IMG/VR virus record: IMGVR_UViG_2718218135_000005
From: a virus
Lineage: Duplodnaviria > Heunggongvirae > Uroviricota > Caudoviricetes
Reading direction: 5' to 3' (one strand)
Length of the DNA: 39,236 nucleotides
Positions within the stretch are counted from its first letter, which is position 1; each line of letters opens with the position of its first letter. Both the position numbers and the translations under genes were made by a program. The notes below the pieces were generated by a model. That model searched no databases and was not told the origin of the DNA. It saw only the letters and a program-made list of their open reading frames with translations. Shown here one piece after another: positions 31,067 to 35,730 of the stretch.

Positions 31067-32004
31067 CCCCTGAATCCTGCCGGGATCTGGCTGTAGTCCA
31101 CATTGTCATAACTGGCTTTGAAGTACGGGTCTTCGCGTTTTTCTGTGTACGTGCTGACGGACGGCGATAAGCGCAGGGAAAGCTCATCCCATTTTTCCCG
31201 CAGCTTCGACGGGCTGAGCACGTTACGGCACCAGAACGGATCGCGGCTGACGCGGCTGTACATCTCGCAGATTTGTTTGTGAGTACGACCATCCTGCACA
31301 CACATCAGGCGAATTTCGTTTGCCCAGGCTGTCCAGTTCGGTTCTTTGGGACGAACCACCTCGCCGTCACATTCGGCGGCCTGCTCGTACAGGGCAATGA
31401 TTTTTTTCCAGAGCCACTGTGCGCAGGTCAAATCATCCTGCGTCCCCCACTGGCGTTTTTTAGGGCTGAATACAACCGCATCAGGATGGCGAGTTAAAAA
31501 ATCCTGTTCAGCCGTCTGCGTGTCCGGTTGCGAAGCGTCCGGACGAGAAGGTTTTTTATCTGACGGATCATGTTTTGATTTTACTGACGGATCCCCGCCA
31601 GATTCTGACGGGTGAAAACCCGCTTTTTTGCCAGATTTCGACGCATCAAATTTTGACGGGTCAGATTTTGATGCGTCAGATTTTGACGGGTCAGAATCTG
31701 ACTGTTGAGAAAATGCCGCTGCCTGAAGCTTCGCAACGTTAAGCTGATAAACATTCGACGCATTGCGGTTACCCTGGCGACGCGCCTTACGCGTTAACCA
31801 GCCTTCTGCTTCCAGCCGTGCGATAGCCGTTCTGACGGTACTCATCCCCGCGCCAATCTGGCGGGCAATGGTTTCAATTGATGGCCAGCACACACCTTCG
31901 TCATTACTGAAATCAGCCAGGCGGGCCATAATTGCCACGCTGGATAATTTCATGCCTGACGCTGCGCAACCATCCCATACATAGCCGGTTAATTTAGTGC
32001 TCAT
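31063..32004 (-). CDS. replication initiation protein (O-like, iteron-binding)
   Basis: 313-aa product with N-terminal winged-helix-like region and central pentapeptide repeats DPSKSDASKSDPSKFDASKS encoded by tandem DNA repeats. Confidence 0.6.
   Translation of the reverse strand: MSTKLTGYVWDGCAASGMKLSSVAIMARLADFSNDEGVCWPSIETIARQIGAGMSTVRTAIARLEAEGWLTRKARRQGNRNASNVYQLNVAKLQAAAFSQQSDSDPSKSDASKSDPSKFDASKSGKKAGFHPSESGGDPSVKSKHDPSDKKPSRPDASQPDTQTAEQDFLTRHPDAVVFSPKKRQWGTQDDLTCAQWLWKKIIALYEQAAECDGEVVRPKEPNWTAWANEIRLMCVQDGRTHKQICEMYSRVSRDPFWCRNVLSPSKLREKWDELSLRLSPSVSTYTEKREDPYFKASYDNVDYSQIPAGFRG
31575..31695. repeat. iteron-like tandem repeats (candidate replication origin) inside the replication gene
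   Basis: Three consecutive 15-bp units ATTTTGA(C/T)G(G/C)GTCAG at 31651-31695, plus degenerate copies upstream. Confidence 0.5.
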
Positions 32005-32352: not shown

Positions 32353-32900
32353 GCGTTAGTTTCTCCACAGTCACGACACGCCACGGCGCCCGGAGCTGCA
32401 CACTCGCGGGCGTCATTACTTTCTGAAATGCAAAAAATTTTGTAGACCAGTGCTGCATGCTCCTGCAGCTTCGAAATTGAGAGGTACAGCTCGTCGTTAA
32501 TTGCTGTCTTCTCATGCGGTTCCACTACACCGTCTTCAATTGCTGAACGAATCTGTTTTGAATAACTGCCGATCTGTTCAATGACCTCCAGCAGGCGTTG
32601 GTTGATATCGGCGTTGTCCACATCCTCGACATCAGGAAGAGACACAAAGACGCCATTTGCAGACTGCGCCACAGCATCAGCAATGAAGTGAGTTCCACCA
32701 GCACGTTGCAAAATCATTGCCCATCCCAGCGGGAAAATCTGATCGCCATCGGCACGAAGGCGGTTAAATAATGCGTTCTCTGTTACATCCAGCCAGTCAG
32801 CAGCTTCAGCGTACCCCCCAGGCAACGCTGCGATAGTTTTTCTGACAGCTTTCACGTACCACTCAGGCTGTTTTTCTACTTTCCAGTGATGCTTACCCAC
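32349..32900 (-). CDS. cII-like / YdaT-family early regulator
   Basis: 183-aa product directly downstream of cro; family resemblance from memory. Confidence 0.45.
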
Positions 32901-33153
32901 GGTTCACCTCCTGTTCCTGTGGTTTAAACCCATTCTGGTTTTGGCTAGATTGAAAACGTGCCGGATAAAGAATCTGCATTTCGCTGACTTCACCCTTAAA
33001 AAAATTGGCTAAACGTTCTGCAAGCTCGATAGATGGAATCTGCTCCAGCCTCTCAATACGACTCAACGTCGCTGGATTGACTTGAACACCCGCAGCAACA
33101 TGCTGCAAAGTGAAACCATGCGCCTTACGCACATTTCGTAATGGTGATTGCAT
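32893..33153 (-). CDS. cro: Cro-like HTH repressor
   Basis: 86-aa product with HTH (FTLQHVAAGVQVNPATLSRIER); divergent from cI. Confidence 0.65.
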   Translation of the reverse strand: MQSPLRNVRKAHGFTLQHVAAGVQVNPATLSRIERLEQIPSIELAERLANFFKGEVSEMQILYPARFQSSQNQNGFKPQEQEVNRG

Positions 33154-33250
33154 ACGCCCTCCAAATATTGCGCGTTATGCATGTTATTTCACGCAATTAT
33201 TTTGCGCAAGTTGATTTGCTTATCACGCAATAAAGAAATGTAATAAACGC
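33154..33250. promoter_or_regulatory. cI-cro divergent promoter/operator region (OR-like)
   Basis: 97-bp gap between divergent cro and cI with repeated half-sites TTGCGCG, CACGCAA, TTGCGCAA, CACGCAA. Confidence 0.5.
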
Positions 33251-33943
33251 ATGAACATAGGAAACCGAGTCAGACAACTTCGCCAAGCGAAGAACATGAA
33301 AATCGCCGATCTCGCTGAAGCGATAGGAGTAGATGCGGCGAACATCTCGCGCTTAGAAACGGGTAAGCAAAAACAATTTACCGAACAAACACTGAGTAAT
33401 ATTGCCAAGAGCTTAGGTGTTGATATTGCTGATCTCTTTACCTCTGCCCACAAAAGTAATACTGTATATAAAAACAGTAATAATGAGGATGTTGCGCAGG
33501 TGAAGGATGTGTTCCGTATTGAAATGCTGGATATCAGTGCCAGTGCGGGAAATGGCCTTATCCAGGGCGGTGATGTCATTGATGTGATTCATGCCATCGA
33601 ATACAGAACTGATAATGCTGTATCAATGTTCGGCGGACGACCAGCCAATCACATCAAAGTTATCAACGTTCGTGGGGACAGTATGTGTCCAACCATTGAG
33701 CCAGGAGATCTCATCTTCGTTGATGTCAGCATCAATCAGTTTGATGGTGATGGTATATATGTCTTTGGTTTTGATGACAAAATATACGTTAAAAGACTTC
33801 AAATGATTCCTGACAAACTGCTGGTGATTTCTGATAACCAGATTTACCGTGAATGGGGAATTACTAGCGAAAACGAACACCGATTCATGGTCTTTGGAAA
33901 GGTCTTAATCAGTCAGTCGCAAACCCTTAAGAGACATAATTAA
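33251..33943 (+). CDS. cI: CI-type repressor (HTH plus S24 LexA-like autopeptidase)
   Basis: N-terminal HTH (VRQLRQAKNMKIADLAEAIGVDAANISRLETGK), C-terminal GDSMCPTIEPGDLIFVD ... VKRL with the Ser/Lys dyad. Confidence 0.85.
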   Translation: MNIGNRVRQLRQAKNMKIADLAEAIGVDAANISRLETGKQKQFTEQTLSNIAKSLGVDIADLFTSAHKSNTVYKNSNNEDVAQVKDVFRIEMLDISASAGNGLIQGGDVIDVIHAIEYRTDNAVSMFGGRPANHIKVINVRGDSMCPTIEPGDLIFVDVSINQFDGDGIYVFGFDDKIYVKRLQMIPDKLLVISDNQIYREWGITSENEHRFMVFGKVLISQSQTLKRHN

Positions 33944-33997: not shown

Positions 33998-34034
33998 TTG
34001 CATATCTCGCAAATATCACTTGCATATCTCGCAA
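33998..34034. promoter_or_regulatory. direct repeat of a 15-bp operator-like site (candidate OL)
   Basis: TTGCATATCTCGCAA at 33998-34012 and 34020-34034, 22 bp apart; ends resemble the OR half-sites. Confidence 0.4.
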
Positions 34035-34220
34035 TTTAATTTTATCTTTTGTTCCAGACCAACTACAGGATTACAACAAAATCTGGTTGCAACACGGTGC
34101 ATGTGTCGTAAGCAGTCAGTAAATGTCAAAAACGAACAGGCAGGACGCCCACGAAGTAGCCGCCTGGGGCATATGAAGTCCAGGATGATTCGTTGAGTCA
34201 TGTTGTGCCACTAGGCACTC

Positions 34221-34517
34221 ATGTTAAAGCAGGTGTATGAAATGAAAGTCCAGATTTTAAACAATAACTGTGAAGTCGTTTGGTCATACGACATAGCCGC
34301 CCCTGTAGATCAGAGCGGCGATAGCTGGACCAATGGGAAACATCAGATTATGGCTGGAGTTGTGTTCTCTTTACGCCGTGCTTTGGAACAGGCTGAAGTA
34401 TTTCCATCAGACCCTGAATGGAAATGGCCTTTTTCTATTTGTCCAAATTCGGAGAGCACATTTCAGAAAATTGGTCAGAAAGTCGCACTCGAAGAGCATC
34501 AGCCAACTGTTTCCTGA
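34221..34517 (+). CDS. hypothetical protein (first pL-side ORF)
   Basis: 98-aa ORF; no Arg-rich N-like motif. Confidence 0.35.
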   Translation: MLKQVYEMKVQILNNNCEVVWSYDIAAPVDQSGDSWTNGKHQIMAGVVFSLRRALEQAEVFPSDPEWKWPFSICPNSESTFQKIGQKVALEEHQPTVS

Positions 34518-34680
34518 TTTTTTCAGGTAACTCGTCGGCATCGCAGAAACAACAACGCTCGATCATGTTGAAAGCCGATTCGTAGAACTGTTTCTGCTGA
34601 GTGTCGCTGAGACAGGAAAAGAGCGACGTTACGATGATTTTATTAATTGCATTATCAAGTTCTTTTTCATCAAAAGTCAT
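34435..34680 (-). CDS. hypothetical protein (antisense in early region)
   Basis: 81-aa ORF convergent with, and overlapping, the 34221-34517 ORF. Confidence 0.35.
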   Translation of the reverse strand: MTFDEKELDNAINKIIVTSLFSCLSDTQQKQFYESAFNMIERCCFCDADELPEKIRKQLADALRVRLSDQFSEMCSPNLDK

Positions 34681-35193
34681 TTGATTTTCCTTTTATGTAT
34701 ACGGGCTTAAAAGGATACCACCGAGCCTGAAGTGGTGAAAAGACAGGCACATAACAGCTAAGTATTTTCAACCAGAGAGAATCCTTAGCGTTGTGGTGAA
34801 TGCGGCTCAGCGCACGCGGGTTAAGGTTGAGGCTGACAGTCGACCTTCTGTGGATACCCACCCGTCTGGTGTGCAACCTTCGCCAGGCACCGGGAGGCAC
34901 CCGGCACCACAACTTTATGCTGTGTGTAGTCCCGGCGGTACCAGTTTGTACCCTTGCTTCCGGCTGGTACCGTCCTTTTTACAAAACAGAGAAGAGCATC
35001 ACCGGACGACGGGCTCATAACCCAATCCATCCGGGCGGCAGTCACCGCAGGTGTTCTTCTCTGTTTTGTGGAGAAACTAACCGCCCCTGCGGGGGCATCT
35101 ATTGAAACGTAATTGCTTAATAATCGCCGGATGGCGAGGGCTTCCTTTTCCCAAAATTCAGCGCAGTGCAGCGCATATAAAGTGGAGAACGAA

Positions 35194-35730
35194 ATGTCAT
35201 TTATTAAAACTTTTTCCGGGAAGCATTTTTATTATGACAAGATAAATAAAGACGACATCGATATTAACGATATCGCGGTTTCCCTTTCAAATATCTGTCG
35301 CTTTGCCGGTCATCTTTCGCACTTCTACAGCGTCGCCCAACATGCGGTTCTTTGCAGCCAGCTGGTGCCGCAGGAATTTGCTTTTGAAGCGTTAATGCAT
35401 GATGCAACAGAAGCGTATTGCCAGGACATTCCCGCACCACTGAAACGCCTTCTTCCTGACTATAAACAAATGGAAGAAAAAATAGACGCCGTAATCCGTG
35501 AGAAATACGGGTTACCCCCAGTTATGAGTACGCCCGTGAAATATGCCGATCTCATCATGCTGGCAACCGAACGCCGCGATCTCGGGCTTGATGATGGCTC
35601 TTTCTGGCCTGTACTGGAAGGTATCCCGGCAACAGAGATGTTCAACGTGATTCCACTGGCACCGGGCCATGCCTACGGGATGTTTATGGAACGCTTTAAC
35701 GAGTTATCGGAGTTACGCAAATGCGCATGA
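35194..35730 (+). CDS. HD-domain phosphohydrolase (YfdR-like)
   Basis: ATG at 35194 (MSFIKTF...); H...HD-type motif in AQHAVLCSQ...LMHDATEAY. Confidence 0.6.
   Translation: MSFIKTFSGKHFYYDKINKDDIDINDIAVSLSNICRFAGHLSHFYSVAQHAVLCSQLVPQEFAFEALMHDATEAYCQDIPAPLKRLLPDYKQMEEKIDAVIREKYGLPPVMSTPVKYADLIMLATERRDLGLDDGSFWPVLEGIPATEMFNVIPLAPGHAYGMFMERFNELSELRKCA

Follow-up and report, generated by a model that had tools for sequence, protein, structure and literature searches.

Does the short GC-rich block that lies early in the pL operon of SfV-like prophages, and that carries a protein annotation in E. coli K-12, encode a protein, or does it act as RNA? The block was analyzed in an SfV/SfII-like lambdoid prophage that adjoins tRNA-Thr(CGT); the whole stretch of DNA that was analyzed, 39,236 nucleotides in length, is referred to here as the window. 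The answer that emerges is that positions 34717–35097 on the plus strand are a non-coding RNA, a chain of conserved folded modules in the pL operon (Table 1). The initial annotation had described a GC-rich segment with overlapping open reading frames (ORFs) in four frames and no clean coding signal. The GC content is 0.54–0.575 over 34700–35099, compared with 0.385–0.39 in the flanks (about 0.39 on either side), and ORFs of at least 30 amino acids occur in five of the six frames; the lack of a coding signal was also borne out, as the comparison with relatives described below makes clear.

Genomic setting and the pL promoter

The block follows an immunity region in which the cro-like and cI-like genes are encoded on opposite strands. 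The earlier placement of the segment on the pL side of the early region agrees with the operators and promoter that were found upstream of it, and this promoter is assigned to pL because operator repeats are present; a further member of the same repeat family is located at 33216–33230 (TTGCTTATCACGCAA), in the cI/cro intergenic region. A promoter scan returned sites no more numerous than in shuffled sequences. The candidate pL would be the repressor-controlled leftward early promoter, firing rightward in the coordinates of the window, and its transcript would start at approximately 34055. The first ORF after pL does not appear arginine-rich by eye, and an N gene is unannotated in related phages.

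The 3′ neighbor of the block is the HD-domain gene that had been predicted there, as judged from its PHROG match (Table 1); against the Pfam YfbR-like model the same gene scores 25.2 bits, slightly below the cut-off of 25.9. The xis and int genes are located further downstream, beyond this phosphatase gene. SfV, SfII, SfIV, ST64B, mEp460, phiNP, Stx2c phages and the e14 element of K-12 all carry this block at the corresponding position, where it separates the immunity region from the first early-left gene, and the gene on its 3′ side differs among relatives, being orf32/yfdP, the HD gene or xisE. Comparison with related prophages, one of the checks that had been proposed, showed the structures to be kept at this position. 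The block is carried by 2785 of 5426 complete E. coli genomes, or approximately half.

Table 1. Features of the pL region of the window, in order of position.
Feature	Position	Strand	Description
cro-like gene	32893–33153	−	
cI-like gene	33251–33943	+	Has its own terminator
pL (putative)	33998–34048	+	Two identical operators TTGCATATCTCGCAA (33998–34012, 34020–34034)
pL hexamers (candidate)	34020–34025; 34043–34048	+	−35 TTGCAT; −10 TATCTT; picked by eye
pL leader element	34131–34197	+	AACGAACAGGCAGGACGCCCACGAAGUAGCCGCC, hairpin CCUGG-GGCAUAUGAAGU-CCAGG, then GAUGAUUCGUU; outside the structured region
orf33/ymfJ-like ORF	34221–34517	+	First after pL; PHROG 3195, function unknown
Convergent ORF, 81 aa	34680 down to 34435	−	PHROG 3311
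Hairpin block	34717–34751	+	ACCACCGAGCCUGAAGUGGU + GAAAAGACAGGCAC; RNA 3′ end marker
Domain 1	34790–34917	+	Multi-branched; 9-bp helix GUUGUGGUG 34790–34798 / CACCACAAC 34905–34913
T-arm-like hairpin	34891–34905	+	CCGGG-AGGCA-CCCGG, in domain 1
UUUA tail, 4 nt	3′ end of domain 1	+	
Spurious ORF, 101 aa	34800–35105	+	Counterpart of K-12 ‘ymfH’ and PGAP ‘hypothetical protein’
Linker	34918–34933	+	UGCUGUGUGUAGUCCC; single-stranded, seed-like, directly 5′ of the terminator hairpin
Intrinsic terminator	34934–34980	+	13-bp stem 34934–34946 / 34962–34974 (with G-U); U-run 34976–34980
Domain 2	34981–35069	+	Three-way-junction RNA; 20-bp outer stem 34981–35000 / 35050–35069
Hairpin A	35002–35034	+	Tip GGG-CUCAUAA-CCC, 35011–35023
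Hairpin B	35035–35048	+	Variable
GGAGAAAC	35070–35077	+	Near-invariant, 0–2 nt past the junction; Shine-Dalgarno-like, without a start codon behind it
Hairpin 3	35083–35096	+	GCCCC-UGCG-GGGGC; just 5′ of the ribosome-binding site of the first downstream gene
HD-family deoxyribonucleoside 5′-monophosphate phosphatase gene	35194–35730		PHROG 318, E = 1.8e-110

The folded modules and their RNA ends

Folding of both strands, proposed earlier as a check, revealed structure beyond chance that is stronger on the plus strand: the segment 34975–35100 folds at −63.2 kcal/mol with z = −7.0 on the plus strand, a value equaled by none of 200 shuffles, compared with z = −4.6 on the minus strand, and the segment 34760–34990 gives z = −2.9 on the plus and −1.3 on the minus strand. 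The ends of the RNAs made from this strand can be read from the K-12 e14 homologue of the block, rather than from the window prophage itself. For e14, published Term-seq tables give three dominant 3′ ends that belong to the ymfH strand (Adams et al., 2021; PMC7815308). When mapped via the e14 locus, the ends at K-12 positions 1201423, 1201257 and 1201195 correspond to window positions 34750, at the end of the hairpin block shared with lambda, 34917, 4 nt past the closing helix of domain 1, and 34980, the final U in the run of the terminator. The Rho scores of the first two ends are non-significant and their intrinsic-terminator scores are below 3, and these two are therefore probably processed ends. 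The e14 ends show transcription of this strand, a terminator that is functional in the cell and RNA ends at the borders of the modules.

The hairpin block at the 5′ border of the structured region is 94% identical to positions 34394–34428 of lambda and 29650–29684 of P22, and likewise to 434 and HK140, at the equivalent place in their pL operons. In lambda it is situated between sieB and ral, within the pL operon; this copy may be the classical tL1, given a 12S pL transcript of approximately 1.1–1.2 kb.

Domain 1 was recognized through Rfam. A search in gathering mode reported nothing, the gathering score of STnc100 (RF02076) being 47 bits, but positions 34760–34983 of the plus strand match this family at 41.6 bits (E = 2e-7), with all model positions from 1 to 206 aligned, so that the match takes in the closing helix (GGUGAAU ... 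CACCGGGAGGCACCCGGCACCA), the hairpins that it encloses and the terminator at the 3′ end; the element CACCGGGAGGCACCCGGCACCA, conserved in STnc100, is exact in the window. The Rfam search thus yielded a full-length match below threshold for domain 1 and none for the junction. The regulatory small RNA (sRNA) that had been offered as an option is accordingly plausible, given this match and the mapped RNA 3′ ends, although the score stays under the cut-off. Among relatives, the closing helix and its flanks are constant and the interior of the domain is exchanged wholesale. The T-arm-like hairpin covaries, with CCGGG/CCCGG replaced by GGUGG/CCACC in other subtypes (loop AGGCA); the RNAalifold alignment is one position off on the 3′ side of this hairpin, and the covariation was therefore taken by eye. 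Several modules that occupy the position of domain 1 in relatives resemble tRNA: under the Rfam tRNA model, those of loci L123 and L116 score 43.9 and 29.5 bits, respectively, and the upstream copy of locus L103 scores 40 bits, and the interiors of the L123 and L116 modules are called tRNA by ARAGORN when introns are allowed. Neither ARAGORN nor the Rfam tRNA model calls a tRNA in the modules of the window, and domain 1 is a single copy both there and in related loci. This tRNA-like, STnc100-type domain had been overlooked in the initial annotation, as had the ymfH protein annotation in K-12.

Domain 1 is joined to the terminator by a seed-like linker. Among 115 distinct relatives, 58 retain its GCUGUGUG / UGCUGUGUGUAGUC sequence, although domain 1 and the hairpin vary. 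The hairpin that had been described as terminator-like (cggtaccag 34936–34944 / ctggtaccg 34964–34972, with TTTTT at 34976–34980) is present as described, and its reading as a terminator is supported by the K-12 3′ end on the last U and by its retention, together with the T-run, in 113 of the 115 distinct relatives, in 62 different sequences and with the T-run always terminal. It is not listed by the terminator scan because its loop of 15–19 nt exceeds the limit of 8. A search of the window with the DicF model (RF00039; cut-off 48 bits) gave no match at E up to 10, and the terminator modules of relatives give weak DicF matches of 29–30 bits.

Immediately 3′ of the terminator, the 15-bp perfect inverted repeat that had been noticed (ACAAAACAGAGAAGA, 34981–34995, and TCTTCTCTGTTTTGT, 35055–35069, enclosing 59 nt) extends to 20 bp through two G-U pairs, which it can do on the plus strand only. 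Over 54 distinct sequences of the junction, 95.7% of cells pair, compared with 40–51% when the partners are slid, and ten pairs are changed on both sides (94 cells); the observed values are matched by no shuffle. A near-invariant U-G pair and many G-U pairs in the stem suit the plus strand only. Hairpin B varies in length from 14 to approximately 40 nt, with insertions and deletions that are not multiples of three. A search in which the loop of hairpin A was left free recovered CUCAU in 126 of 130 instances; a CUCAUUC loop, which violates the purine-37 rule, is present in 15 of the 130 relatives. Hairpin A has a tip (GGGCUCAUAACCC) identical to the anticodon stem-loop of the E. coli initiator tRNA. 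In relatives, the stem of hairpin 3 also covaries, and its loop remains UGCAG-like. That the inverted repeat forms the outer stem of a conserved three-way junction had been overlooked.

A covariance model, R1, built from early-left copies only, finds one junction in the window (101.5 bits on the plus and 40 bits on the minus strand), scores the e14 copy, in which several pairs are broken, at 69.6 bits, and scores most Klebsiella-type copies at 35–46 bits (E about 1e-8 to 1e-11). The latter, class-II junctions are located in the late region, directly after real tRNA genes, and consist of a short outer stem followed by RCCA; the early-left and late-region junctions are one family in two contexts. 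R1 detects no copy in lambda or in the HK022 immunity region, and the junction has no family in Rfam 15 and no description that could be found in the searchable literature. A contig scan with a pattern of 15 specified bases gave nearly all chance matches from unrelated phyla, and of its loci, L132–L251, all except L153, L245 and L249 were excluded. Three further ideas were rejected: a hammerhead, suggested by CUGAUGA in the Klebsiella-type copies, a sequence that simply makes up one side of a covarying stem and lacks conservation among class-I copies; identity of the junction with PasB, which belongs to a structural-gene operon; and two copies per phage in the manner of putL and putR, as the two apparent places per record in the BLAST output are the inverted repeat matching itself.

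The resemblance to tRNA raises the possibility that phage tRNA genes are decaying here and that the modules, as their remnants, have no present function. The sister modules that reach the Rfam tRNA cut-off or are called by ARAGORN, the CAU anticodon loop at the junction tip, the class-II junctions with RCCA ends behind real tRNA genes, and the broken pairs of the e14 copy would all fit such decay. It is nevertheless unlikely, as the modules are highly conserved in phages of E. coli, Salmonella, Citrobacter and Klebsiella with compensatory changes, and this conservation, the near-invariant apical loop and GGAGAAAC, and the fixed synteny point to selection acting on the RNAs, which could well function at present even if they originated as tRNA. 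The initiator-tRNA-like tip and the late-region relatives within tRNA arrays ending in RCCA are also the grounds for supposing that the junction mimics the arm of a CAU-anticodon tRNA and engages a tRNA-binding partner, so that the cassette would be a regulator or decoy rather than a passive leader. We consider this idea improbable, and hold the same view of the partners that it would involve: the 30S P site (in combination with the neighboring GGAG), one of the enzymes MetRS and TilS, or an anticodon nuclease from a defense or toxin system of the host.

Antitermination, DNA-level and protein readings

The initial annotation had placed the segment where lambdoid phages carry nut sites and tL terminators. 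The terminator half of this suggestion stood and the nut half did not: no YGCTCTTTAA-like match to the nut boxA (CGCUCUUA / UGCUCUUUAACAA) with at most one mismatch exists in 34000–35200. A broader form of the reading, in which the structures of a lambda-type nut/tL or HK022-type put region load an antitermination factor or act on RNA polymerase, is favored by the location within the pL operon, by the unannotated N gene of the phage group and by the need to pass the terminator in order to reach xis and int, as well as by a conserved, structured leader that follows pL (Table 1). Immediately past unrelated pL promoters, this leader element recurs in 69 of the 131 related loci and in 51 phage records, among them phages of Yersinia, Pantoea, Pectobacterium and Aeromonas, and its hairpin stem covaries (CCUGG/CCAGG, CCGGU/ACCGG, CCCCA/UGGGG, CCCGG/CCGGG). 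An exact rrn-type boxA, GCTCTTTAACAA, comes next after the element in 17 relatives, and the element is missing in approximately 40% of the relatives that have sufficient upstream sequence.

For the structured region itself, an antiterminating role is nonetheless decidedly unlikely. Neither boxA nor boxB is present inside it, its similarity to HK022 putL is nil beyond one 8-mer (blastn-short against the HK022 immunity region returned only words of 6–10 nt at chance level), the interior of domain 1 is not conserved, unlike put, and the junction lies 3′ of the terminator and therefore cannot control it. If an antiterminator RNA exists at this locus, it would therefore be the leader rather than the structured region. 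The leader is the best candidate for a read-through or antitermination element; as a regex scan detected no second copy in the window or related loci and no blast-level similarity to HK022 put was found, this label is only inferred. The leader corresponds to no Rfam family, and no description of it was found in the searchable literature.

The long, symmetrical arms of the inverted repeat could also be viewed as sites in DNA, i.e., a pair of protein-binding sites of the operator, recombination or integration-host-factor type, and the GTTGTGG...CCACAAC frame of domain 1 as a recombination boundary, as the interior is swapped between phages within a constant frame of 7–9 bp, in the way expected of a recombination joint. 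This is very unlikely to be the principal role of the region. The U-G and G-U pairs would be mismatches in a DNA symmetry and on the minus strand, the junction model is strand-specific, the internal hairpins covary and the RNA 3′ ends fall at the module borders. The frame of domain 1 may have an additional DNA-level role in mosaic exchange.

A small protein, the 101-aa ORF that corresponds to K-12 YmfH, is strongly disfavored and highly improbable: although the annotations of K-12 and of most of the 2785 E. coli carriers place an ORF of this size on the element, and overexpression of ymfH scored as a retron-toxin trigger in one screen (a result that an RNA could explain equally well), a frame is open from domain 1 to hairpin 3 in only 4 of the 115 distinct relatives, the maximum ORF length across the junction is anywhere between 0 and 140 aa, hairpin B has out-of-frame indels, no Pfam or PHROG family matches the ORF, in contrast to the neighboring small ORFs, substitutions track base-pairing and not codon position, and the ORF crosses a terminator that functions in vivo.

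Proposed working of the cassette and comparison with known systems

With the strand, the lack of coding, the conserved structures, the terminator and, for the K-12 homologue, the three in vivo 3′ ends established, the region is probably a non-coding attenuator and small-RNA cassette on the plus strand of the pL operon in an SfV/e14-type prophage without an annotated N. Transcripts would start at the repressor-controlled pL and cross the orf33-like gene, and would be cut or end at 34750, behind the lambda/P22-type hairpin. The RNA would then fold as the tRNA-like, STnc100-type domain, and most transcription would halt at the intrinsic terminator, resulting in low expression of the downstream early genes, from the HD phosphatase to xis and int. 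Stable small RNAs may be released in the process, namely the folded domain and a DicF-like RNA of 34918–34980 composed of a seed, the terminator hairpin and a U tail; these products would be regulatory sRNAs, and they may have separate promoters. In read-through mRNA, which the conserved pL leader may promote, the junction, GGAGAAAC and hairpin 3 would form the 5′ leader of the next gene, and, as the most economical guess, the junction would act on processing, stability or translation.

A cassette that is carried by about half of complete E. coli genomes and is labeled as a hypothetical protein is non-coding, and its re-annotation as RNA is therefore due. The region offers a model for how prophages of the SfV, e14, ST64B and Stx2c types may gate their excision and recombination genes, by means of a terminator flanked by conserved RNA structures, and the widespread pL leader element is a place to seek the missing antitermination mechanism. 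The poorly understood STnc100/PasD family of sRNAs becomes linked to tRNA-like modules, and a covarying three-way-junction RNA without a match in Rfam 15 is found in both early and late phage operons.

Several known systems share parts of this arrangement. STnc100 and its PasD relatives are Hfq-associated sRNAs (bioRxiv 10.64898/2026.05.13.724894). They are prophage-borne, as is domain 1, but their genes are located in the late region, 3′ of stx2 or in the interval from Q to the lysis genes, whereas the window copy belongs to the pL operon; their interior helices are also unlike those of the window, and the same frame in relatives holds unrelated or tRNA-like interiors. Domain 1 resembles a tRNA in its 9-bp acceptor-like helix, its T-arm-like hairpin and its 3′ end 4 nt past the helix, but the window copies lack the CCA end of tRNA, and domain 2 has no D arm. 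DicF, which is processed from the early-left-like dicB operon of prophage Qin and thus likewise derives from a long prophage operon transcript, has the same build, with a short single-stranded seed, a GGCGGUAyCAG... hairpin and then CCGCCCUUUUU, and differs in its seed from the linker of the window.

The tL terminators of lambda are likewise intrinsic terminators that the pL transcript meets before it reaches the recombination and excision genes, and the sieB–ral sequence of lambda shares the 35-nt hairpin block with the window; lambda has N and nut, whereas the boxA-like sequence and an annotated N are lacking here. HK022 is an N-less lambdoid phage with structured RNA in its pL transcript, and its putL is positioned right after pL, like the leader described above. 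HK022 put, however, exists in two copies (putL and putR), whereas domain 1, domain 2 and the leader are each single in the window and in related loci, and the structured elements of the window lie approximately 0.7–1 kb from pL, with one of them past the terminator. Formal membership is not reached for STnc100, on account of the score, or for DicF, tRNA, nut or put. By analogy with these systems, the region would combine a lambda tL-like terminator with an operon-embedded sRNA of the DicF/STnc100 kind, to which it adds one apparently uncatalogued RNA motif, the three-way junction.

Early control region and leader

Two identical operators overlapping a predicted promoter (see the table below) probably constitute OL/pL, and a site related to these operators was also identified at positions 33216–33230 of the window. 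The conserved structured leader that follows is a candidate antitermination element; in related phages, it begins a few nucleotides past many pL promoters that are unrelated to each other. An exact rrn-type boxA (GCTCTTTAACAA), with a small hairpin on its 5′ side, was found 3′ of the leader in 17 related loci, and the window lacks this boxA. The two small ORFs downstream are convergent, with an overlap of 83 bp; the ORF on the minus strand is preceded by a good ribosome-binding site (AAGGAAAA), and its positional counterpart is ymfI of the Escherichia coli K-12 prophage e14. The tandem repeats located outside this region are probably replication-origin iterons. Three related loci (L002, 322–510, minus strand; L003, 409–597, minus strand; L018, 5052–5240) encode RNAs of the C4 antisense and isrK families within their pR-side antirepressor region; no match to either family was obtained in the window at the gathering threshold.

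Features of the window and of related loci (L numbers)
Feature	Location	Strand	Remark
Tandem repeats, 4 × 15 nt	window 31632–31706		CAGATTTTGACGGGT-like
Identical operator pair, 15 bp each, with predicted promoter	window 33998–34048		overlaps −35/−10 pair; just past cI terminator
Conserved structured leader	window 34131–34197	+	~80 nt 3′ of predicted pL start
Small ORF	window 34221–34517	+	PHROG 3195
Small ORF	window 34435–34680	−	PHROG 3311
rrn-type boxA	L036 6435–6446		
rrn-type boxA	L043 1111–1122	−	
rrn-type boxA	L095 6426–6437		14 further loci
tRNA-like module	L123 1077–1203	−	Rfam tRNA threshold reached
tRNA-like module	L116 4364–4488	−	Rfam tRNA threshold reached
tRNA-like module	L103 1800–1925	+	Rfam tRNA threshold reached
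Late-region three-way junction	L009 1502–1581		
Late-region three-way junction	L017 3330–3409	−	also other Klebsiella-type loci

Boundaries of the cassette

The 35-nt hairpin block at 34717–34751 is near-identical in lambda (34394–34428; 1501–1535 in locus L006), P22, 434 and HK140, and lies approximately 50 nt from the start of sieB, which is on the opposite strand. Its last base is a strong RNA 3′ end in K-12 e14, and the block could represent either a processing site or the classical tL1 of lambda. At the other boundary (35098–35193), the orf32/yfdP-like and DUF2303/yfdQ-like genes of SfV, ST64B and mEp460 are absent; hence, the cassette directly adjoins the HD phosphatase gene. The same joint sequence recurs in loci L012 and L258, indicating a variant that is in circulation, not a deletion private to this prophage.

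tRNA-like elements in related loci

The three tRNA-like modules sit, like domain 1, in the GUUGUGG/CCACAAC frame, and have an acceptor-like helix of 9 bp and a conserved insertion of approximately 45 nt containing UAUCUCAUGCGG. In L004, L007, L015, L050 and L103, an extra module closed by GAGAGCAUUG/CAGUGCUCUC was observed upstream of domain 1, with two T-arm-like hairpins (CUGGUUCGAUUCCAG and GUCCGUUCGAUUCGGAC); this module is absent from the window. The late-region three-way junctions of the Klebsiella-type loci are located 6 nt 3′ of a real tRNA gene and possess a 6-bp outer stem followed by RCCA, thereby resembling a mini-tRNA that has a CAU anticodon but lacks the D arm.
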